Shown here piece after piece: positions 48,535 through 59,219 of a stretch of 64,000 nt of DNA (positions are counted from its first letter, which is position 1; each line of letters begins with the position of its first letter). Origin of the DNA: Nitrospirota bacterium. Its GTDB lineage: Bacteria > Nitrospirota > Thermodesulfovibrionia > Thermodesulfovibrionales > JdFR-88. The notes beneath the pieces were generated by a model. That model ran no database searches and was not told where the DNA came from. It saw nothing but the letters and a program-made list of their open reading frames with translations. A program made the position numbers and the translations under genes. Location of the stretch: assembly GCA_021789935.1 (NCBI GenBank), contig JAJYIR010000012.1:2219-66218 (forward strand). The letters run 5' to 3'.

Positions 48535-50034
48535 TTGGGTAAGGGTTTTTCTTTTCCGCATCCTTTTTTTTCCTCGAAGTCCAGCTGGAAGTGGTTCATA
48601 CTGACCACAGTTCTGGTTGGCGCGACGATGTCGGCGCTGGATGTGAGCATCGTGAATGTGGCGATGCCTACGCTCCAGCACAGCTTTAATGTATCGCTGG
48701 CGCTCATAGAGTGGGTTGCGATGGCCTATATGCTGACGCTAACCATATTCCTTCCCCTGTTTGGAAGGCTTGCCGACATGTATGGACGGACAAAGCTCTA
48801 TACAACGGGCTTTGTGGTCTTTACCATAGGCTCGGTCCTTTGCGGGATGTCGCCGACGGCTTCTTTTCTTATTTTTTCCCGTGTGCTGCAGGCGGTGGGC
48901 GCCGGGCTTCTGCAGGCCAACTCGGTGGCAATCATTACCGCTGCGTTTCCCGGCAACGAGCGTGGAAAAGCCATAGGCATTCAGGGCGCGGTCCAGGCGG
49001 TTGCCATGTCCATAGGGCCATTTGTTGGCGGGCTGCTTATCAAGGCGGTAAGCTGGAGGGCCATATTCTATGTAAACCTTCCCATCGGCATAATCGGCGT
49101 TTTAATGGCGCTTCTGATACTGCCCAAAAGCGAAAGCAGCGGCAAAAAGGAGAAGATCGATTTTTTTGGCATACTTACCTTCTCCCCGGGGCTTGCCTGC
49201 ATGGTCCTTGCCCTGAACAAGGGTGAGAAACTGGGCTGGACATCGAACACCATACTGGCGTATTTCGCCCTTGCGGCTGTGTTGCTCACCGCGTTCGTCA
49301 TTACCGAGCTGAAGGTTGAACACCCAATGATAGACCTGAAGCTGTTCAAAAGCTACACCTTCAGCGCGGGAAACATCACCGGCATGCTTTCCTATTATGT
49401 TCTGTTCGCGATACTCTTCCTCATGCCTTTTTACATGGAGGAGGTCCTTCACTACGGGGTCGCCCTGACAGGCAGTCTTCTTACACCCATTCCTCTTGCG
49501 ATGGCGTTCGTGGCGCCGGTTGCGGGCTCTATCTCGGACAAGCACGGCTCCAGGGTAATGACCACCTCCGGGATGCTTGTTTGCGCACTTGCAACGTTCT
49601 TCCTCATGTTCATGGGCGAGTCCGCCCACCTTACCTGGCTTGTGCTGGATTTGGTCGTCCTCGGCATAGGGATGGGAATGTTCACGCCGCCAAACAACAG
49701 CGCAATAATGGGCGCCGCTCCCAGGGAGAAGCTTGGTCTTGCCGGCGGCATCCTCAACATGACGAGGTCTCTTGGCCTTATTTTCGGTGTGGACATCTCG
49801 GGCCTCATCTTTACCAGTCTTAAGCATAGCTACTATGTTTCCAAGGGCTTCAGTCTGGCCGACACAAAGACCATCCCTGCAGAAGTAAGGAATGATGCCT
49901 TCATGCACGGGTTCATGGTGGTGATGGGCGTGCTCGTGGGAATAAACATAATTGCCGCAATCCTTTCGGTTGCCAAGAAGGATGAAGGTCTCCTGAGCGC
50001 CGAGGAGATGAAGGAGTTTGCTGCCGGGGACTGA
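48535..50034 (+). CDS. MFS transporter, DHA2 (EmrB/QacA-like) family
   Basis: LDVSIVNVAMP, GRLADMYGR, WRAIFYVNLPIG and HPMIDLKLF motifs; about 14 TM. TTG start. Confidence 0.9.
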   Translation: MGKGFSFPHPFFSSKSSWKWFILTTVLVGATMSALDVSIVNVAMPTLQHSFNVSLALIEWVAMAYMLTLTIFLPLFGRLADMYGRTKLYTTGFVVFTIGSVLCGMSPTASFLIFSRVLQAVGAGLLQANSVAIITAAFPGNERGKAIGIQGAVQAVAMSIGPFVGGLLIKAVSWRAIFYVNLPIGIIGVLMALLILPKSESSGKKEKIDFFGILTFSPGLACMVLALNKGEKLGWTSNTILAYFALAAVLLTAFVITELKVEHPMIDLKLFKSYTFSAGNITGMLSYYVLFAILFLMPFYMEEVLHYGVALTGSLLTPIPLAMAFVAPVAGSISDKHGSRVMTTSGMLVCALATFFLMFMGESAHLTWLVLDLVVLGIGMGMFTPPNNSAIMGAAPREKLGLAGGILNMTRSLGLIFGVDISGLIFTSLKHSYYVSKGFSLADTKTIPAEVRNDAFMHGFMVVMGVLVGINIIAAILSVAKKDEGLLSAEEMKEFAAGD

Positions 50035-50061
50035 TGTCTCCTGAACCTTTACATATCTTCA

Positions 50062-50100
50062 AAACGGGCCGGAGAACAGCAGAATCCTCCGGCCCGTTTT
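50062..50100 (+). terminator. Terminator-like hairpin after the MFS gene
   Basis: AAACGGGCCGGAG...CTCCGGCCCGTTTT. Confidence 0.6.
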
Positions 50101-50166
50101 GCATTGACCGGCGCCAGGATTTTCTCCCGGCTTTATTTTCAGATGGTTTTTCTGTAAACTTAGCGT

Positions 50167-51120
50167 ATGATGAATTTTAAAGATCTCCTGGATGAATCCG
50201 TTAAGCTTCACGGGCATCTTTGCGCCGGACAGGTGCTTGGGGTGCGGATGTCCATGGCGGGATTAAGAGAGGCCGGTATTTTCGCCCCCAGGGGGGCCGA
50301 CAGGAAAAACCTTATTGTCTTTGTCGAGATAGACAGGTGCGCGACTGACGCCATACAGTCCGTAACCGGGTGCAGCCTGGGCAAAAGGACTATGAAATTC
50401 GCGGACTATGGCAAGATGGCTGCAAGCTTCCTGAACCTGAAAAACGGGAAGGCCGTAAGAGTGCTGGCCAAAGAGGAATCCAGGCAAAGGGCAAAGGAAT
50501 ACTTCCCCGAAATTGAAAATCGTTACGAGGCGCAGCTTGAGGCTTACAAGATAATGCCGGAGCAGGAGCTTTTCGAGATTTCAGAGGTCGTCATAAAGAT
50601 TAAGCCGGAAGACATGCCTGGCCGCCCGACCGGCAGGGTGCCCTGCGCAAGGTGCGGAGAATATGTGCAGGACTCCAGGGAAGTAACGCACGGGGATATT
50701 AATTTGTGCCGGCCGTGCTCAACGGAGGCCGGTTATTACGAGGGTCCTTTTTTTTCATCTAGCGTTATGCACAAATTGCATAACGATTTTGAAATCAAAT
50801 CGAAGCTCTGGATTGAGTCAGGGGGAGGGCCTTTTTTTGGCCGGGGCAAGGTGCTTCTGCTGAAGGCCATAGACAGGCACGGTTCCATAAGCCAGGCGGC
50901 GAAAGAGGTGAACATCCCGTACAGGAAGGCATGGGGCTATATCAAGGCAATGGAAGAAAGACTCGGCATCCCTCTTGTGGAGTGCAAGGCTGGAGGGAAA
51001 AACGGCGGCGGCGCGACCCTGACTCCAGAGATAAGGGATTTCCTTGCCAAGTATGACCGGATTGAAAAAGAGATGCGGCTGAAGACGGATGAAAAGTTCA
51101 GGGAGATATTCGGATTATAA
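50167..51120 (+). CDS. FmdE-family (FwdE-like plus Zn finger) domain fused to a ModE-type winged HTH
   Basis: HGHLCAGQVLGVRM, EIDRCATDAIQ and CARCGE..CRPC; then KSKLWIE..FGRG..LLKAIDRHGSISQAAK..YRKAW..GG..GGGATLT. Confidence 0.85.
   Translation: MMNFKDLLDESVKLHGHLCAGQVLGVRMSMAGLREAGIFAPRGADRKNLIVFVEIDRCATDAIQSVTGCSLGKRTMKFADYGKMAASFLNLKNGKAVRVLAKEESRQRAKEYFPEIENRYEAQLEAYKIMPEQELFEISEVVIKIKPEDMPGRPTGRVPCARCGEYVQDSREVTHGDINLCRPCSTEAGYYEGPFFSSSVMHKLHNDFEIKSKLWIESGGGPFFGRGKVLLLKAIDRHGSISQAAKEVNIPYRKAWGYIKAMEERLGIPLVECKAGGKNGGGATLTPEIRDFLAKYDRIEKEMRLKTDEKFREIFGL
50763..50785. promoter_or_regulatory. ModE-box-like perfect palindrome inside the fmdE-modE ORF
   Basis: CGTTATGCA-CAAAT-TGCATAACG. Confidence 0.65.
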
Positions 51121-51162
51121 TTTTTTTTAGGGAAAAATATGGGGATATGAGGTATTCAATCC

Positions 51163-52257
51163 ATGTGCGATGAGTTTTTTCCCCCGATAGGAAAAGGCGG
51201 CAGCGGGGGTGGAAGCAAAAAGAAAAAGACCGTTCCGGTATCACTGGCAGCCGGAATGGTGCTTGCCCACGATATTACCGAGGTACGTCCGGATTTTAAG
51301 GGGCGGGCGTTCAGGAAGGGGCACATCGTCAAACAAGAGGATATCGCCCACCTGATGAGGCTGGGAAAGGAACACCTTTATGTCCTTGCTCTGGCCCCTG
51401 AGGAGATGCACGAGGACGAAGCGGCGTCAGTGATGGCGGCAGCCGTTATGGGCAAGGGCGTGGAAGCGGGGGAGTGCCGCGAAGGGAAGATCAATGTGTC
51501 CGCCTCTATTGACGGGCTTTTAAAAGTAGACAAAGAGGCGCTGATGGAGTTCAACATGCAAGGCGAAATAATGTGCGCCACCTTGCACGATGGCACCGTT
51601 GTGCGGAAAGGGCAGACGGTAGCGGCCACACGAGCAATACCGCTTGTCGTGGACCGCCGGGCTGTGGAGCTGGCTGCCGGCATTGCACGCGAAAAAGGAG
51701 GCATCGTAAAGGTCCTGCCGGTCAGAAAGCCCAAAACAGGTGTTGTGATTACCGGCGAAGAGGTGTTTTCGGGACGGATAAAGGACGCCTTTGCCCCCGT
51801 CATCAGGGGGAAAATAGAGGCATTGGGCGGGGAAATAATCGGTATCGCCTATGCCCCCGATGATGAAAACTTCATCGCGGCAAGGCTAAGGGAATTCCTG
51901 AATAAGGGGGCGGACCTGCTTATCGCGACAGGTGGAATGTCCGTGGATCCGGACGACGTCACCAGGTTTGCCATAAGGGATTTAGGCGCCCGGGACATCA
52001 CATATGGGGCGGCGGTGCTGCCAGGCTCGATGTTCCTTTCGGCCACCATAGAGAACGCGAAGGGTGCTGTTGTGCCAGTCTTAGGAGTACCTACCTGTGC
52101 CATGTACGGCAAGACAACCATATTGGACCTCATGCTGCCAAGGATACTTGCGGGAGAGGAGATTGGCAGGAGGCAGCTGGCGGAACTTGGGCACGGGGGC
52201 CTGTGTCTCCACTGCAGCGTGTGCCGCTGGCCCGTTTGTCCTTTTGGAAAATTTTGA
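51163..52257 (+). CDS. Molybdopterin-binding protein (MoeA-like/MoCF biosynthesis domain)
   Basis: GMVLAHDIT, TGGMSVDPDD and GAAVLPG motifs; C-terminal CLHCSVCRWPVCPFGK. Confidence 0.8.
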   Translation: MCDEFFPPIGKGGSGGGSKKKKTVPVSLAAGMVLAHDITEVRPDFKGRAFRKGHIVKQEDIAHLMRLGKEHLYVLALAPEEMHEDEAASVMAAAVMGKGVEAGECREGKINVSASIDGLLKVDKEALMEFNMQGEIMCATLHDGTVVRKGQTVAATRAIPLVVDRRAVELAAGIAREKGGIVKVLPVRKPKTGVVITGEEVFSGRIKDAFAPVIRGKIEALGGEIIGIAYAPDDENFIAARLREFLNKGADLLIATGGMSVDPDDVTRFAIRDLGARDITYGAAVLPGSMFLSATIENAKGAVVPVLGVPTCAMYGKTTILDLMLPRILAGEEIGRRQLAELGHGGLCLHCSVCRWPVCPFGKF

Positions 52258-52277
52258 CCTGTTCCCGGAGATCCATC

Positions 52278-53231
52278 ATGGAACTTAGAGACTCTTTTGG
52301 CAGGAAGATAGACTATATAAGACTCTCCGTAACGGACAGGTGCAATCTTCGCTGCATATACTGCAACCCGGGTAACGCTTCGAGGTGTTCTTTAAATCCG
52401 GGCAAGATGCCGAAATTCGAAAAAATAACCCGTTTTTTGCGTGTTGCCAGGAAATACGGGTTAAAAAAGGTAAGGCTCACGGGGGGCGAACCTCTTTTAA
52501 GGAAGGATATAGTCCATCTGGTCCGTGAGATCAAGGCCATTGGTATAGAGGACCTCAGCCTTACCACAAACGGCCTTCTGCTTCCGTTTTTTGCAACGGA
52601 GCTCAAGATGGCGGGGCTGGACAGGGTAAATATAAGCCTTGACTCCCTGAATCCGGACCGCTACGGATCAATAACCGGCGGCGGCAGACTGGGCGATGCT
52701 CTTCGGGCCATCAGGGAGGCCGAAAAGGTCTTTTGGCCGGCCCCGGTCAAGATAAACATGGTCCCTATAAAGGGCGTAAACGGAGACGAAATACGCGGTT
52801 TTGCTCAAATGACCCTGGAGAACCTTTTTCATGTCAGGTTCATAGAGCTTATGCCGGTTGGCGGCAGTGCCTTTGAGGAAATGAGAATCACGTCCGGGGA
52901 AGCCAAGGATGCGATATCCTCCATGGGCGGGCTTCTTCCTCTTGGCCGTTCCGGCTCTTCAGACAACTACGCGCTTCCGGGCGCCAAGGGAGTGATAGGT
53001 TTCATAAGTCCCATGAGCGGCCATTTATGCGATTCCTGCAACAGGCTGCGCATAACGCCGGCGGGCAAAATAAGGCCCTGTCTTTTCTCGGACCATGAGC
53101 AGGACCTGAATACGGCTTCCACCGAAGATGAGATGGAACGGTTATTGCTCATTTCAGTATTGAGCAAAGAGAAAGGGAGTCTTCTTAAGAGGGCTGTACA
53201 GTTCGATACCATGCAACAGGTTGGGGGTTAA
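52278..53231 (+). CDS. moaA: GTP 3',8-cyclase MoaA
   Basis: RLSVTDRCNLRCIYC, TGGEPLLR, CDSCNRLR and C-terminal GG. Start moved to ATG 52278. Confidence 0.93.
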   Translation: MELRDSFGRKIDYIRLSVTDRCNLRCIYCNPGNASRCSLNPGKMPKFEKITRFLRVARKYGLKKVRLTGGEPLLRKDIVHLVREIKAIGIEDLSLTTNGLLLPFFATELKMAGLDRVNISLDSLNPDRYGSITGGGRLGDALRAIREAEKVFWPAPVKINMVPIKGVNGDEIRGFAQMTLENLFHVRFIELMPVGGSAFEEMRITSGEAKDAISSMGGLLPLGRSGSSDNYALPGAKGVIGFISPMSGHLCDSCNRLRITPAGKIRPCLFSDHEQDLNTASTEDEMERLLLISVLSKEKGSLLKRAVQFDTMQQVGG

Positions 53232-53234
53232 GGC

Positions 53235-54059
53235 ATGTTCAGAAAGGGTTTTCCCCAGATTTTTGTTAAAAGGTTTTTGGCCGTTCCAGTGATTTTTTTG
53301 TTGGCCGCCGCCTTTTTTGTAACTTTTTGTCCGCTGGAGGGACACGCCGCCGCTCAAAACAATCAAGATATCACCGTCTCGGCGGCAATAAGTCTTAAAA
53401 ACGCCTTCAACGAGATAGCAAAGATATACGAGGAAAGGAACCCGGGCGTAAAAATACTATTCAACTTCGGGGCTTCGGGCAACCTGATGATGCAGATAGA
53501 GGAGGGCGCGCCGGTGGATGTCTTTGCCTCCGCAGCCGAAAAACAGATGGACGATCTGGCGGGAAAAGGGCTCATAGCGCCAGGCTCCAGGGTGGATTTC
53601 GCCGAAAATACCGTTGTCCTCATCGTTCCATCGGGACAAAAGAGCGCATTTGTCAAAGGCTTCATGGACCTTACGGACCCTCGCATAAAAAGGATCGCCA
53701 TAGGCAACCCCAAGTCCGTGCCCGCCGGAATGTACTCGGAAGAGACTCTCAAATATTTTGGGCTTGGGACTTCCGTAAGTAAAAAAATTATATACGGCGA
53801 GCATGTGAGGCAGGTGCTTGAATACGTTGCAAGGGGAGAGGTGGACGCTGGTCTCGTTTACTCCACGGATGCCAGGATTGAGGCGGGGCAGGTGAGGGTG
53901 GCGGCTGTCGCGCCGCCCGCCAGCCACAAACCGGTCGTGTACCCCATAACGGTCGTCAGAGGGTCGGCAAACGAAAAACTCGCGCGGACTTTCGTGTCTC
54001 TGGTTACATCACCGGAAGGTAAGAAAATCCTCCGGAAATACGGGTTTGAATCGAAATGA
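53235..54059 (+). CDS. modA: Molybdate ABC transporter substrate-binding protein
   Basis: Signal peptide; SAAISL, FGASG.L..QIEEGAP, VPAG and VYSTDA motifs. Confidence 0.92.
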   Translation: MFRKGFPQIFVKRFLAVPVIFLLAAAFFVTFCPLEGHAAAQNNQDITVSAAISLKNAFNEIAKIYEERNPGVKILFNFGASGNLMMQIEEGAPVDVFASAAEKQMDDLAGKGLIAPGSRVDFAENTVVLIVPSGQKSAFVKGFMDLTDPRIKRIAIGNPKSVPAGMYSEETLKYFGLGTSVSKKIIYGEHVRQVLEYVARGEVDAGLVYSTDARIEAGQVRVAAVAPPASHKPVVYPITVVRGSANEKLARTFVSLVTSPEGKKILRKYGFESK

Positions 54060-54134
54060 TTTTTTGTCCCCTTTTATTTTTTCTTTTTTCTTTCTCTTTT
54101 ACGCCTTTGACCGGCTGGGAGACTTGGTGAACCT

Positions 54135-54800
54135 ATGAGCGCTAACGGGATGTTTTCGCTCAGGCTGTCGTTTCAGGTTGCCCTGGTAGTGACATTTTTC
54201 ATACTGCTTGCCGGTGTCCCGGTCTCTTACATTCTGGCGAGGAAAAAATTCCGTGGCAAGGAACTTCTGGACGCGCTTTTTACGCTTCCCCTGGTGCTCC
54301 CGCCGACGGTAACGGGATATTACCTGATAGTCCTTTTGGGCCGGAACGGGTTTTTTGGCCGTCCGCTTTACAACCTCACCGGCTGGACTGCCATGTTCAC
54401 CTGGTGGGCGGCGGCGGCGGCCTCCTTCGTGGTGTCCATACCGCTTATGATAAGGACCTCCAGGGCCGCGATAGAATCCGTGGATGAAAACCTTGTGAAC
54501 GCTTCCTATACACTGGGACATGGAGAGCTCAAGACCGCGCTCAGGGTGGTGCTCCCTCTTGCGAAAAAGGGAATAATGGCCGGGGCAGTGCTTTCCTTCG
54601 CAAGGGCGATAGGCGAGTTCGGCGCAACTCTGATGTTTGCCGGCGACATACCCGGCAAGACGGAGACCATGCCGCTTGCCATCTACAATTACCTTGAAAA
54701 CGGAGAGTGGGACAGGGCGCGGGCCATGGCCATCATACTTACCGTTTTGTCAGTGTCGGTCATATATATCGCCAACAGGTTAAGCAAGAGGATATTTTGA
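54135..54800 (+). CDS. modB: Molybdate ABC transporter permease
   Basis: LPLVLPPTVTGY and FARAIGEFGAT motifs. Confidence 0.93.
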   Translation: MSANGMFSLRLSFQVALVVTFFILLAGVPVSYILARKKFRGKELLDALFTLPLVLPPTVTGYYLIVLLGRNGFFGRPLYNLTGWTAMFTWWAAAAASFVVSIPLMIRTSRAAIESVDENLVNASYTLGHGELKTALRVVLPLAKKGIMAGAVLSFARAIGEFGATLMFAGDIPGKTETMPLAIYNYLENGEWDRARAMAIILTVLSVSVIYIANRLSKRIF

Positions 54801-54802
54801 AA

Positions 54803-55561
54803 ATGGGGCTTTCGGTCAACATCAGGAAGAGGCTCAACGGGTTTTCCATGGACGTCAACTGGCGCATGGAAAACGAGTTTGCGGTATTGTTCGGGCGCTC
54901 CGGAGCCGGAAAGTCACTTACTCTAAGGTCCGTGGCAGGGCTCATCAGGCCGGATGCCGGAACGATAATTTCGTCTGGAGAGGTGCTTTTTGACTATGCG
55001 GCGCGGATAGATATCTCACCGCAAAAAAGGGGGTTCGGTTACGTTTCCCAGGACCCGGCGCTGTTTCCTCATATGACAGTGCGCGGGAATATTGAATATG
55101 GGATAAAGAAAAATAAAAATAAAAAACCTGTCCTCAAGGGAAAAGACAAAGACCCGGAGGAAAGCTTGAATTATATTCTGGATGCCTTCGGGATAAAAAA
55201 ACTCGGGGACAACCGCCCGGACGAGATATCAGGAGGGCAAAAGCAGCGTGTCGCCCTGGCAAGGGCCCTCATCGGCAGGCCCAGGGCCCTTTTGCTCGAT
55301 GAGCCTTTTTCGGCGCTTGATGCCCCGCTGCGCGCTGAGATGGGAAGGCTTCTCGTGGAAATAAGACGGGAGTTTAATATCCCCGTAGTGCTGGTTACGC
55401 ACGATCTTGCAGAGGCCCGCGGACTGGCCGGAAGACTTATCATTTACCATGGAGGGAAGGTCATCCAGGAGGGTTCGCCTGAAGATGTTATCAGAAGCCC
55501 GGCCAGCGAAGATGTTGCCTCGCTGCTGATGCTGCCGGAAAACAGGGCCGTTTTTTATTGA
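54803..55561 (+). CDS. modC: Molybdate ABC transporter ATPase (no C-terminal TOBE domain)
   Basis: GRSGAGKS, ISGGQKQR and LLLDEPF motifs. Start moved to ATG 54803. Confidence 0.88.
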   Translation: MGLSVNIRKRLNGFSMDVNWRMENEFAVLFGRSGAGKSLTLRSVAGLIRPDAGTIISSGEVLFDYAARIDISPQKRGFGYVSQDPALFPHMTVRGNIEYGIKKNKNKKPVLKGKDKDPEESLNYILDAFGIKKLGDNRPDEISGGQKQRVALARALIGRPRALLLDEPFSALDAPLRAEMGRLLVEIRREFNIPVVLVTHDLAEARGLAGRLIIYHGGKVIQEGSPEDVIRSPASEDVASLLMLPENRAVFY

Positions 55562-55601
55562 TCCATCACAATAGAGCAATAGAGCTTAAAAAGAAAGTTA
55601 T

Positions 55602-58307
55602 TTAGAGCTTCTCTATCCTCACGGCGCAGGACTTGTACTCCGGAGTGCCCGTTATGGGGTCCCTGTGCGGCGAAGTGAGCAGGTTTGTGAGAACGTCCTG
55701 GTGATGGAATGCCAAAAAGACGTTTCCCTCCTGGGAGCGTTCGAATACTCTCACCTTTACTTTTATTTCCCCCCGCCTGGAGCTGACCTTCACCATCTCA
55801 CCGTGTTTGATGCCCAGCTTCGCTGCATCGGCCGGGCTAAGCTCCAGCAGCTCTTCAGGGAACATCTCCATGATCCCCTTTGAGCGCCTGGTCATCGATC
55901 CGTTGTTGTAGTGTTCGCGCCTGCGGCCTGTGATGAGCACAAATGGATAATCCGCGTCAGGGACTTCTCCTGATCCCTTGTGCTCAAGCGCGATGAACCT
56001 GGCGCGCCCGCCGGGCCGGGAGAACATTTCCTGGTAAAGAGTGGCTGTCCCCGGATGGTCCTTGGTGGGGCAGGGCCACTGTATGCTGCCCTGATCAAGC
56101 CGCGCATAGCTTATGCCCCCGTAAATGGGAGCCAGCGACGCTATTTCATCCATGATTTCCGAAGGATGGTTGTATTTCATTTGATAGCCCATCCTTGAGG
56201 CTATCTCGCAGAAGACCTCCCATTCGGCCTTGCCGGAGACGGGTTCCACAGCCTTCCTGATTCTCTGCACTCTTCGCTCTCCGTTTGTGAACGTGCCTTC
56301 TTTTTCAGCGAAGCTGGCGCCAGGCAGCACCACATGGGCAAAACGCGTGGTCTCGGTGTGGAAGATGTCCTGCACGACCAGAAACTCCACTGAGGCAAGC
56401 GCCTGGCGTATGTGGGAGATATCCGGGTCCGTATGGGCCGGGTCCTCGCCGAGGATGAAAAGTCCTTTGAAAGTGCCTTTTTTTGCCTCATCGAGCATCT
56501 CTACTGATTTGAGCCCCGGTTTTGAGGGCAGTTTTACTCCCCAGGCTTTTTCGAATTTCTCCCTGACCTTGGGGTCGGTTACCGGTTGGTATCCGGTAAA
56601 AGCGGCCGGTGCAGGCCCCATGTCCGAAGCGCCCTGGACATTGTTTTGCCCCCTGAGCGCCATTATGCCGGTGGCGGGTCTGCCTATATGGCCGCAGACG
56701 AGGGCCAGGTTGGCCACGGCCATGGCGTTTTCCGTGCCGGTCTGGTGCTCGGTCACTCCCAAACCGTAAAGGATCATGGCGTTTTTTGCCCCGGCGTATA
56801 TCCTGGCAGCCTCTACCAGCTTCTCGGGGGAAACGCCGGTCAGTTCGTGAACATGAGCGGGTGTGTATTTCTCCACTGCGTCCTTCAGATCTTCGAACCC
56901 TTCGGTCCTTTTTTCGATGAAATCCCTGTTATAAAGGCCTTCCTTGAGTATTACATGCACAAGTCCGTTCAGAAGGGCGATATTGGAGCCGGGTTTCAGG
57001 TTGAGCCAGACGTCAGCCCATTTGACCAGCTCTATCTTCCTGGGGTCTGCGACGATTATTCGGGCCCCGTTTTTTATCGCCTTGTTCACATGAATGGAGA
57101 TCACCGGATGTCCTTCGGTGGTGTTCGATCCGAAGATCAAAAGCGCATCCGCCTCCGATATCTGGTCGAAGGAATTGCTCGCGGCTCCCGCCCCTAAAGA
57201 TGTGGCCAGACCGGCCACAGTTGGGGCGTGTCAAACCCGGGCGCAGTTATCTACGTTATTGCTGCCCAGGACCGTGCGGACCCATTTGGAGACCAGGTAA
57301 TTTTCCTCGTTGGTGCAGCGCGAAGAGGAAAAGGCCCCCACGGCATCCGGACCATACTTTTCCTTAATCGCTCCAAAGCGGCTTGCTATGAGGTCCAGGG
57401 CCTCATCCCATGTGGCTTCGCGGAATTTCCCGCCTTCTTTTATAAGAGGGGTTTTTATCCGGTCCTCATGATGTATGAACTCATAGCCGAAGCGCCCTTT
57501 TATGCACAGGTTCCCTTTGTTGACGGGAGAATCGTAGTCAGAGGTGACCTTCGTCACCTTGCCATGCTTTACATTCAGGAAGAAGGAACAACCCGTCCCG
57601 CAGTAAGAGCAAGTGGTTTTAACCTTTTTTACGGAAAGGTGCCGGCCCGTTCTGGCGGAGGGCTTTTCCACAAGGGCTCCTGTGGGGCACGTGGAGACGC
57701 ACTGGCCGCAGAAAAGGCAGTTTTCAGGGGATAGGGGTTTGCCGAAAGCGGTGTCCGGTTTCGCGTGAAAGCCTCTGCCGGTCATATCTATGGCTCCCTT
57801 GAGCATCACGTTTTTGCAGATGTTCACGCACCTGCCGCAAAGGATGCATTTGTTCGGGTCGAAAGTTATGAAAGGGTTGTCTTCCCTTTTTGGGAGGTCC
57901 CACCGTTCGCCTTCGTACCTGGCGGGGGCCGCATCATATATAAAGGCTAATTCCTGCAAGGAGCAGTCTCCGGCCTTTTCGCAGCGCAGGCAGTCATTCG
58001 GGTGGTTGGAGAGAATGAGGGAAAGCATCGTCCTTCTAAGTTCAGTGAGGTTCTCGCTTTCCGTCGTGATCTCCATACCGTCTTGTATCGGGGTCGTGCA
58101 GGAAGAAAGCGGCCTGTTTATCCCTTTTACTTCCACCAGGCACAGCCTGCAGCCGCCATAAGGTTCCAGGCGAGGGTCAAAGCAGAGGGTGGGGATGAAT
58201 ATGCCCGCCTCCCTGCAGACCTCAAGGATGGTCTTACCTTCTTCACAATCGATCTGTTTTTGATTTATAAGGATCTTAATCAACTTCCCAGCCTGTTTAC
58301 CATCCAA
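55602..58307 (-). CDS. fdhF: Selenocysteine-containing formate dehydrogenase alpha subunit with N-terminal Fe-S domains (901 aa, one gene read through UGA at 57231-57233)
   Basis: The two same-frame ORFs join as DNCARV-U-HAPTVAGL. Also RGQNNVQG, [2Fe-2S]/[4Fe-4S] Cys motifs and TPEYK; SECIS directly after the UGA. Confidence 0.92.
57189..57228 (-). promoter_or_regulatory. Bacterial SECIS element
   Basis: mRNA after the UGA: CGCCCC-AAC-UGUGGCC-GGUCU-GGCCACA-UCUUUA-GGGGCG, with the same loop region as the E. coli fdhF SECIS. Confidence 0.85.
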
Positions 58308-58480
58308 TTTTTTGCCTCTCCTTTCGCCGCAAAAAACTTTCCCAAAAAGACATGTTTGTTTCTTATTTTACCCTGCGGCTGGTAAATTTCTCAAACATTT
58401 ATCTATAAATAATAATAATGCCGTTATCACCCGGGTATGTCGCGAAGGTCCGCAGTGAAGGGGCGCGATGAAAAGACATG

Positions 58481-58522
58481 TTGACTATATTTTTTTTGTC
58501 CTTTAAAATGTGCATATGCACA
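58481..58522 (+). promoter_or_regulatory. Sigma70 promoter with an overlapping palindromic operator upstream of the DUF134 gene
   Basis: TTGACT-17bp-TAAAAT (58481-58509) overlapping TGTGCATATGCACA (58509-58522). Confidence 0.7.
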
Positions 58523-58546
58523 AAATCAAAATATCCAGGGGTGTTT

Positions 58547-58846
58547 ATGTCTCCAAGGCCTAAGAAAGAGCGGGTTTGCGGGTGCAGCTTCATGGGTAGG
58601 GCATTCAAGCCCACCGGCATCCCGATGACCAGGATAGAGAAGATAACACTTTTAAGGGACGAACTTGAAGCGATTAAGCTCTGCGATATGGACGGACTGA
58701 CCCAGGAGCAGGCAGGGCTTAAGATGGGTATTTCGAGGGGGACTGTTCAGCGGATATTGACGAGTGCAAGGAAGAAAGTGGCGGAGGCCCTGTCCGGATG
58801 CAAGGCCATCGTGCTTGAAAACATTATTTGCAAAGAGGAGGAATAA
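58547..58846 (+). CDS. DUF134 (UPF0251) HTH protein
   Basis: MSPRPKK.R, FKPTGIP and DELEAIKLCD..GLTQEQAG..MGISRGT motifs. Confidence 0.85.
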   Translation: MSPRPKKERVCGCSFMGRAFKPTGIPMTRIEKITLLRDELEAIKLCDMDGLTQEQAGLKMGISRGTVQRILTSARKKVAEALSGCKAIVLENIICKEEE

Positions 58847-58847
58847 G

Positions 58848-59219
58848 ATGAAACTGTGTTTTCCCGTAAGTGAGCCTCAGTCGCTTGGCAGCAGGGTGTA
58901 CGGGCATTTCGGCTCGGCCCCGGCATTTATCGTGTTTGATACTGAAACCAAAAAGGAAAAGCCTGTCCTGAACGCCGACTCGCATCATGCCCACGGGATG
59001 TGCAGCCCCCTTAAGGCGCTGGCGGGCGAGCAGGTGGACGCCGTTGTGGTAGGGGGAATAGGCAGGGGCGCGCTTATGAGACTGAACGGGGCCGGCATAA
59101 AGGTTTATAAGGCCTTCGAAGGGACGGTCGCTGAGAATATAAAACTTTTTGAGGACGGGCGCTTGCCTCTTTTCAGCCCCCTGGCAGTCTGCTCCGGACA
59201 GGAAGGCTGCGCGCACTAA
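58848..59219 (+). CDS. NifB/NifX-family (dinitrogenase FeMo-co binding-like) protein
   Basis: HFGSAPAF, HAHGMC and VVGGIG.GAL..L...GIKVY motifs. Confidence 0.85.
   Translation: MKLCFPVSEPQSLGSRVYGHFGSAPAFIVFDTETKKEKPVLNADSHHAHGMCSPLKALAGEQVDAVVVGGIGRGALMRLNGAGIKVYKAFEGTVAENIKLFEDGRLPLFSPLAVCSGQEGCAH

Follow-up and report, generated by a model that had tools for sequence, protein, structure and literature searches.

What could FmdE be doing when it is joined to the DNA-binding part of a molybdenum regulator? ModE is the textbook molybdenum (Mo) sensor, and the function of FmdE has been an unanswered question ever since the sequencing of the fmd operons. The two meet in one gene at positions 50167–51120 (+) of a 64,000-nucleotide (nt) stretch of a Nitrospirota genome (GenBank assembly GCA_021789935.1, contig JAJYIR010000012.1, positions 2,219–66,218 of the forward strand; hereafter the window). 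Judging from the sequence comparisons below, we consider it likely that this gene encodes a ModE-family DNA-binding regulator of a Mo/tungsten (W) uptake and cofactor operon, and that an inverted repeat at the junction of its FmdE and helix-turn-helix (HTH) parts is its predicted site; the regulator would very probably be autoregulated. The best explanation taken as a whole, a Mo/W-homeostasis factor of the ModE family with an embedded operator and with FmdE replacing TOBE, claims more, and we place it a little short of an even chance.

The locus and its relatives tie the ModE HTH to FmdE through gene neighbours, through fusions in both orders and through a triple fusion with a MoeA-like protein, and they supply a 23-bp candidate operator. 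Many anaerobes carry just the DNA-binding domain of ModE, and the locus bears on how such proteins sense Mo. It also offers a candidate function for FmdE, a widespread family with solved structures. Papers are cited below by PMC number.

A ModE-type DNA-binding domain joined to FmdE

The gene and its junction contain the following features.

50167..51120 (+): FmdE–zinc finger::ModE-HTH fusion gene (open frame, domain matches, PDB matches 2ijl, 1b9m and 2gvi)
50206..50577 (+): FmdE alpha+beta core, residues 14–137 (PF02663, E 1.6e-34; His2Cys2 site)
50626..50718 (+): C-terminal zinc finger of the FmdE module, residues 154–184 (weak zf-dskA_traR match, E 0.0054, below the Pfam cutoff)
50728..50802 (+): linker, residues 188–212 (predicted disordered; encoded by the T-run and the operator)
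50748..50755 (+): T8 run, codons P194–S197, 7 nt upstream of the operator (from the sequence)
50763..50785 (no strand): candidate operator, a perfect 9+5+9 inverted repeat with core CGTTATG-N9-CATAACG (scans of the window, the genome and relatives)
50839..51078 (+): ModE-type winged HTH, residues 225–304, structured to about residue 317 (TIGR00637, PDB, Foldseek)

The single open frame encodes 317 amino acids (aa) with zero internal stops, in the order FmdE, four-Cys zinc finger, disordered linker and ModE-type winged HTH. This is the architecture that the initial annotation had described, one uninterrupted frame joining FmdE and a CxxC..CxxC motif to a C-terminal ModE HTH, and all of its domains were matched. 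By the score of the family model, the protein is a full member of PF02663, the FmdE family (Pfam; 119.3 bits against a cutoff of 22.9, model positions 1–133 of 133 covered). The HTH was matched by HTH_1 (PF00126) at residues 231–288 (E 5.5e-10; 39.5 bits, cutoff 26.6) and by ModE_repress (NCBIfam TIGR00637) at residues 225–304 (E 9.5e-26; 89.8 bits). The best sequence match in the PDB was 2ijl, a stand-alone "putative ModE" (E 7.8e-12, residues 209–304); Escherichia coli ModE (1b9m) was matched at residues 227–300 (E 4.9e-9), and the same search returned the FmdE structures 2gvi, 3d00 and 2glz.

An AlphaFold2 (AF2) model built on 69 homologues had a mean predicted local distance difference test score (pLDDT) of 83.4 and a predicted template modeling score (pTM) of 0.56. 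The FmdE core exceeded a pLDDT of 90, the zinc finger lay at about 77–84, and residues 188–212 were the sole segment below 50. With Foldseek, the FmdE part retrieved 2gvi (1.2e-10) and also 3d00 and 2glz, with 206 columns aligned between the model and 2gvi, zinc finger included, and the HTH part retrieved 1b9m (E 7e-6) and 2ijl. By sequence and by fold, the C-terminal domain is a ModE-type winged HTH. The Pfam search found no PF03459 (TOBE/Mop) match in the fusion protein, and the HTH is C-terminal (residues 225–304 of 317). Mop/TOBE domains and an N-terminal HTH are two defining features of ModE; having neither, the protein is a ModE-domain regulator and not a ModE.

The putative metal sites are fully conserved. 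H15, H17 and C19 of the HGHLC motif, together with C58, are invariant in the 69 aligned fused homologues, as are C160, C163, C181 and C184 of the zinc finger. The first four correspond to His15, His17, Cys19 and Cys55 of a solved homologue, in which the FHGHxC motif and a fourth Cys form a tetrahedral metal site (PMC2954224; ligands from Table 5, section 3.3).

An inverted repeat at the junction

What would such a domain bind? A candidate site lies within the gene itself. The repeat at 50763–50785, whose ATG is codon M201, is the single match in the window (expected 0.02) and the only site with at most one mismatch in the 2.47-Mb genome; no second good copy was found in the genome, which holds 8 two-mismatch sites, equal to the background rate. 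Among 54 related loci scanned, the motif occurs once per locus, with N9 spacing and at most two mismatches, in 48. The 6 loci that lack it are 5 FmdE-only loci and one 37%-identical outlier, and across the scanned loci the presence of the motif tracks the HTH gene. It is found in all 42 distinct junctions aligned, with 8 columns invariant, and lies 13–60 nt ahead of the conserved KSKLW codons of the HTH domain. A second site was seen in one locus only, L045 (G185:C199): of its two copies, at positions 1076 and 2200, one accompanies the HTH gene, and the other, which is perfect, falls between fmdE and a moaA gene inserted there.

Fused genes translate the motif as "VMQKxHN"; many split loci start their HTH gene at a codon overlapping it. 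In L005, L017, L026, L033 and L038 it is intergenic, outside or out of frame with the HTH open reading frame (ORF), which argues for a nucleic-acid element and not for a peptide constraint. Since it is conserved whatever the frame, the conservation of the linker peptide appears to be a shadow of the constraint on the nucleic acid. An operator inside coding sequence would show plainly how a cis-element can constrain a protein linker, and would caution against taking conserved linker peptides for protein features.

At its outer bases, CGnTAT...ATAnCG, the motif agrees with the consensus that PMC545781 quotes for E. coli ModE, ATCGNTATATA-N6-TATATANCGAT. The repeat here spans 23 bp and not 24, and its centre is GCA/A-rich and not TATATA. 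The Desulfovibrio sites given in PMC545781 (CGGTCACG-N14-CGTGACCG) are unrelated to the junction motif.

Might the palindrome serve something other than this HTH, either as an RNA hairpin hiding the start codon of the HTH, for translational control or coupling, or as the site of another factor? It contains the ATG that many split loci use as the HTH start, its 7–9-bp stem would form as RNA, and it sits inside the transcription unit and not in a recognisable promoter. However, none of the 9 pairs showed compensatory change, and the observed covariation score was reached by 435 of 500 shuffles, which together favour a protein-binding DNA site over an RNA helix. Single changes go unrepaired, as in the 5 rows with CGCTATG and an intact right arm (L012, L028, L030, L032 and L043), and the conserved half-site sequence matches the outer CGnTAT/ATAnCG of the ModE box (PMC545781). 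Moreover, the motif tracks the HTH gene exactly, and in L017 and L038 a separate Shine–Dalgarno sequence and ATG lie downstream of it. We regard both versions of this alternative as improbable and take the repeat to be a candidate operator of the HTH.

Upstream of the motif, most relatives have a T-rich tract (consensus "ttTTTtt" across the 42 junctions). L047 and L049 have TATAAT immediately ahead of the motif, a hint of an internal promoter that applies to some split loci and not in general. With TATAAT so placed, the ATG of the motif could be a leaderless start in these two loci. In L047, L049 and L051–L053, the spacer between fmdE and the HTH gene is 300–550 nt long and contains an ORF of 104–138 aa that is blank in Pfam (two scanned). 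The embedded junction operator, as a candidate, is new here.

Fused and split forms among relatives

Is the fusion real, and is it more than an accident of one genome? A T8 run sits 7 nt ahead of the junction motif and most forms in the phylum are split, so a miscounted homopolymer or another assembly or sequencing artefact could in principle have joined two genes of the organism. The initial annotation had flagged the stretch around 50735–50770 for a possible stop or frameshift. Logan contigs from 4 runs of one study cover 50000–51300 with zero indels; three of the four runs may be the source sample itself, and the evidence consists of contigs and not of raw reads. The fourth comes from a different sample, whose 455-nt contig spans 50509–50963, crosses the T8 run at 50748–50755 without a gap and carries two substitutions of its own close by (50758 T>C and 50762 G>T). 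Independent assemblies of 97%, 89% and 82% identity share the fusion and its position (P0001–P0004; L004), and 14 fused loci, the window counted, read through without a stop. An artefact is scarcely credible in view of these data.

The initial annotation had proposed looking for other FmdE–ModE-HTH proteins and their neighbourhoods. In a search of 5.8 billion proteins, the best 120 matches all carry both Pfam domains (57–97% identity, 296–374 aa); their named members are Nitrospirota. In a library of representatives at 50% identity, the full-length form occurs in very few clusters, P0120 and P0121 (686 aa), which indicates one fairly tight clade with many members.

For the phylum, we searched 301 genomes with the whole protein and separately with the HTH part. 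Of the HTH matches we kept the 96 best rows (identity of 44% or more, E no higher than 2.2e-30) and compared their positions with the FmdE rows listed; lower HTH rows, 34–62% identical and mostly paralogues, were left out. The 96 HTH orthologues are arranged as follows.

Fused: 13/96
fmdE–zinc finger gene at most 100 nt upstream, same strand: 44/96
Separated by in-frame stops or a frameshift only: 9/96
fmdE and HTH 101–600 nt apart: 12/96
Further off on the same contig: 4/96
No FmdE on the contig among the matches listed: 14/96 (upper bound)

The HTH is thus fused to FmdE or within 600 nt of it in 78 cases, of which 65 are the split form with fmdE upstream, and within the phylum the split form is commoner than the fused one. 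When 21 "full-length" loci and the window were read directly, 14 were truly fused and 8 (L005, L013–L018 and L026) had a stop in the linker, the two genes being in frame with one or two stops between them. A quick tree of 44 concatenated FmdE and HTH rows, which omits L043 and L067 because of gaps, needs 6 changes between fused and split states, 1 of which is forced by well-supported branches; repeated fusion or fission is likely. Most relatives would accordingly make two chains, the FmdE–zinc finger protein and an HTH protein of 117–130 aa, the window representing the single-chain form, and in fused genes what was an intergenic operator would now be read through as a disordered linker.

The initial annotation had held that its reading would fail if relatives consistently encode separate genes and the fusion is a one-off. 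Separate genes are indeed often seen, but they are adjacent, in the same order and with a shared conserved candidate operator, and fusion is frequent. The adjacent split genes, the 13 fusions among the 96 orthologues and the best 120 matches, all fused, argue against both a one-off stop loss and an assembly error. From these comparisons, the fusion appears as one state of a conserved two-part system.

The order of genes around the junction is constant: FmdE–zinc finger, motif, ModE HTH and MoeA-like, often then MoaA. The MoeA-like gene is the most constant neighbour of the FmdE/HTH pair, being 55–80% identical in nearly all related loci, and its product may be the real functional partner of FmdE. 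The other neighbours are Mo genes. A MOT1-type molybdate transporter gene stands between the HTH and MoeA-like genes in L039, L040 and L049, and modABC follows downstream only in the window and L004. Other architectures link the same domains independently. Triple fusions of FmdE, HTH and the MoeA-like protein, about 690 residues long, occur in P0121 and L058, and the reversed order, ModE HTH and then FmdE, in P0150 and P0166. The nearest match of P0150 in a protein-atlas search was the Nitrospirota FmdE–HTH cluster, and a metagenome scan with P0150 returned only same-order members of the family, the locus of P0150 not among them. At G182:C4:28869-29213, fmdE is a gene of its own, and the open frame that follows it directly, 509 aa long, contains an HTH orthologue; this frame may be an HTH–MoeA-like fusion, a fourth arrangement of the same three modules.

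The operon and a possible role of the FmdE module

How could the DNA binding of this regulator be coupled to Mo or W? The genes that bear on the question are the following.

50060..50101 (+): terminator-like hairpin of the upstream major facilitator superfamily transporter gene (48535–50034), a perfect 15-nt inverted repeat with a 12-nt loop, then TTTTG
51163..52257 (+): MoeA-like molybdopterin-binding protein, 364 aa (MoCF_biosynth only, E 3.8e-20; PDB MoeA 1uz5, E 5.4e-10)
52278..53231 (+): moaA, GTP 3',8-cyclase (TIGR02666, 295.8 bits against a cutoff of 284; Radical_SAM, Mob_synth_C)
53235..54059 (+): modA (TIGR01256, 216 bits against 62.5)
54135..54800 (+): modB (TIGR02141, 238.6 bits against 182.6)
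54803..55561 (+): modC, 252 aa (ABC_tran only, TOBE absent; covers positions 1–224 of the 353-position modC model)
55602..58307 (-): selenocysteine formate dehydrogenase alpha subunit, convergent with modC (Fer2_4, NuoG-type Fe-S, Molybdopterin, Molydop_binding)

The hairpin at 50060–50101 marks 50102–50166 as the start of a new transcription unit, and a scan for terminator-like sites on the + strand returned none in 49950–53400. The fusion gene heads the operon, followed on the same strand by moeA-like, moaA, modA, modB and modC with intergenic gaps of 2–75 nt. The initial annotation had read the gene order in this way, and moaA, modA and modB score above their NCBIfam cutoffs. The MoeA-like protein lacks the C-terminal domain of MoeA; its sequence finishes with a conserved tail rich in Cys, GHGGLCxxCxxCxWPVCPF. 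The remark in the same annotation that neither the fusion protein nor the 252-aa ModC carries TOBE/Mop extends to the entire genome: PF03459 gave 0 matches in its 2.47 Mb (60 contigs, 100% complete by markers), and of 14 control genomes put through the same search, 11 were positive. Apart from that of the fusion protein itself, no ModE-type HTH was found in the genome, and no molybdenum cofactor (Moco) riboswitch was found in 49500–58800.

A mechanism consistent with these features can be proposed. The C-terminal winged HTH, as a dimer, would bind CGTTATG-N9-CATAACG in the DNA coding for its own linker, a step that is well supported. The operator lies upstream of the HTH-coding part, moeA-like, moaA and modABC, and binding would control this downstream part of the operon, perhaps by occlusion of an internal promoter or as a transcriptional roadblock. 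The FmdE–zinc finger module, a dimeric domain with a His2Cys2 metal site, would take the place of the di-Mop/TOBE part of ModE and couple DNA binding to Mo/W status, its ligand being perhaps an oxyanion, a thio-anion, or a molybdopterin or cofactor intermediate shared with the MoeA-like protein. Dimerisation of FmdE (PMC2954224) could bring two HTHs into place on the 23-bp repeat. FmdE is suggested as the sensor because its HTH-only partners have no effector domain and neither TOBE nor a riboswitch is at hand, and because the linkage is kept and fusions occur in both orders and as triples with the MoeA-like protein. That the FmdE module makes the regulator ligand-responsive we judge to be about even. 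The more general conclusion, that FmdE–zinc finger is the Mo/W (or pterin-cofactor) sensing partner of the ModE-type HTH in TOBE-free anaerobes, with a repressor made interchangeably of one or two chains and an operator at the junction, is tentative and stands somewhat below even. If it is true, PF02663 would be a module for sensing metal or cofactor status and for hand-over, the MobB, MobA and MoeA-like fusions and the methanogen fmd operons included.

Several observations weigh against this reading. The TIGR00637 score of the HTH, 89.8 bits, is below the NCBIfam cutoff of 98.5. No sigma-70-like promoter was found in 50102–50166 or at the operator. In the AF2 model the two halves have no fixed contact (pTM 0.56, linker pLDDT below 50). 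The same FmdE subfamily stands directly before the MoeA-like gene, without HTH or motif, in L006, L035 and L037; the 14 of 96 HTH orthologues without a listed FmdE on their contig include all 8 rows of family f24, and 15 of 91 genomes with an FmdE orthologue have no HTH orthologue among the matches listed. Fusion partners also point elsewhere. In 24 representatives picked for extra length or for spanning the junction, a sample biased by that choice, FmdE–zinc finger is fused to MobB in 10, to MobA-like in 1, to HIT in 1, to TrmO_N in 1 and to DUF364/DUF4213 in 1, and to an HTH in 4, 2 of them with an N-terminal ModE-type HTH (P0150 and P0166); fusions to MobB (10) and MobA (1) thus outnumber those to HTH (4) and point to cofactor maturation.

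These points define a serious rival. In it, FmdE–zinc finger would be a factor for Mo/W-cofactor maturation or metal delivery whose partner is the MoeA-like protein here and MobB or MobA in other settings; the HTH would be a self-contained autoregulator, and the fusion would have arisen from adjacency and stop loss, FmdE having no influence on DNA binding. The HTH-less pairs of FmdE with MoeA-like, the genomes with FmdE only and the dominance of MobB, MobA and MoCF_biosynth fusions among the picked representatives would all follow, and a fusion to PF00994 is also listed in PMC2954224. The 8 loci in frame with one or two stops imply that one point mutation can fuse the genes, and the disordered linker and the modelled lack of domain contact would be as predicted. 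However, an HTH-only ModE of 117–130 aa has no effector site, and neither TOBE in the genome nor a riboswitch in 49500–58800 was found to supply one. The fused state is kept across 57–97% identity in at least 120 clusters, linkage within 600 nt holds in 78 of 96 orthologues, and a reversed HTH–FmdE fusion cannot come from simple stop loss in this gene order. We judge this rival less likely than not. A cofactor-handling protein that doubles as a sensor would, by analogy, reconcile both readings; enzyme-repressors such as BirA are a known design that combines the two roles.

The distribution of TOBE across the phylum counts for a regulator with FmdE in place of TOBE, as it is absent from 68 of 85 genomes with the HTH orthologue and from 109 of 216 without, a comparison confounded by kinship. 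TOBE occurs in nearly every genome of family f25 (49 of 50) and in every one of f28 (24 of 24), and the HTH orthologue in none of them; in f1, f2, f8, f10 and f24 the orthologue is present and TOBE absent. This complementary pattern tracks phylogeny.

With E. coli ModE (1b9m, 1o7l) the system shares the homologous winged HTH, the modABC and cofactor-synthesis operon, and an inverted repeat of similar size with matching outer bases. It differs in the C-terminal position of the HTH, in the absence of Mop/TOBE, in an effector module made of FmdE and zinc finger, and in an operator inside the coding sequence of the regulator itself. We take TunR of sulfate-reducing bacteria to be a comparable Mo/W-responsive regulator of modABC derived from ModE by domain shuffling; in TunR the Mop sensor is presumably retained and the DNA-binding domain replaced, whereas the protein described here would do the reverse, with the DNA-binding part of ModE retained and its sensor replaced. 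The stand-alone N-terminal domain of ModE from Agrobacterium (2ijl) is of the kind that split relatives encode, at 117–130 aa; unlike such stand-alone proteins, the HTH here is covalently joined, and in relatives genetically coupled, to an FmdE module. HTH-only ModE genes occur in Desulfovibrio, and Mo sensing by such domains "is not clear" (PMC545781).

The FmdE structures 2gvi, 3d00 and 2glz have the same fold, His/His/Cys/Cys site and C-terminal zinc finger as the module here (PMC2954224); the finger is an auxiliary treble clef that only part of the family has. On the strength of the zinc finger alone, the authors suggested that these proteins might regulate transcription or sense metals; most family members neighbour metal transporters, and a formylmethanofuran dehydrogenase context is found in only 13 of 208. 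The fusions listed in the available part of that paper are to PF00994 and PF01980, and none is to an HTH. In contrast to the original FmdE, the window gene has no adjacent formylmethanofuran dehydrogenase gene: none is among its neighbours (moeA-like, moaA, modABC, formate dehydrogenase), and fwd/fmd genes were not searched for elsewhere in the genome. In the tfx-fmdECB operon of Methanothermobacter, which responds to molybdate and tungstate, a gene for a DNA-binding protein likewise stands beside fmdE, and Tfx binds downstream of the promoter; Tfx is, in the text available, not reported as ModE-like, its gene is upstream of fmdE and unfused, and its operon encodes the dehydrogenase itself (PMC3087415).

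The literature searched contained no description of an FmdE–ModE regulator. One sentence of PMC11237513 mentions a fusion of FmdE to a "transcriptional regulator" in 3 Methanosaeta assemblies, and the function of FmdE was called undetermined in 2026 (PMC13355700). The "new type of regulator" of the initial annotation holds in that no published description was found, but the architecture is already abundant in databases under vague names ("FmdE family protein", "ModE-like protein") and is uncharacterised rather than unseen.

The formate dehydrogenase next to modC is a likely consumer of the Mo/W cofactor. Its ORF is split by an in-frame TGA (57231–57233) and reads ...CARVUHAPT..., which makes the alpha subunit a selenoprotein; a SECIS_3-like (selenocysteine insertion sequence) match at 57178–57236, just downstream of the TGA, has an E of 8.5e-4, under the gathering score. 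Past this gene, 58478–59219 (+) encodes a small DUF134/sigma-70 region-4-like protein and then a Nitro_FeMo-Co (NifX/NifB-like) protein, another pair of a small putative regulator and a cofactor-binding protein. The genome also encodes a second FmdE–zinc finger protein (207 aa, 29% identical) at G000:C38:89461-89886 (L001, 1465–2088). It lies outside any Mo context, adjoining acetylglutamate-kinase-like and DNA methyltransferase-like genes (named by eye from their translations), and this unrelated setting suggests that the FmdE family has paralogues with other roles.

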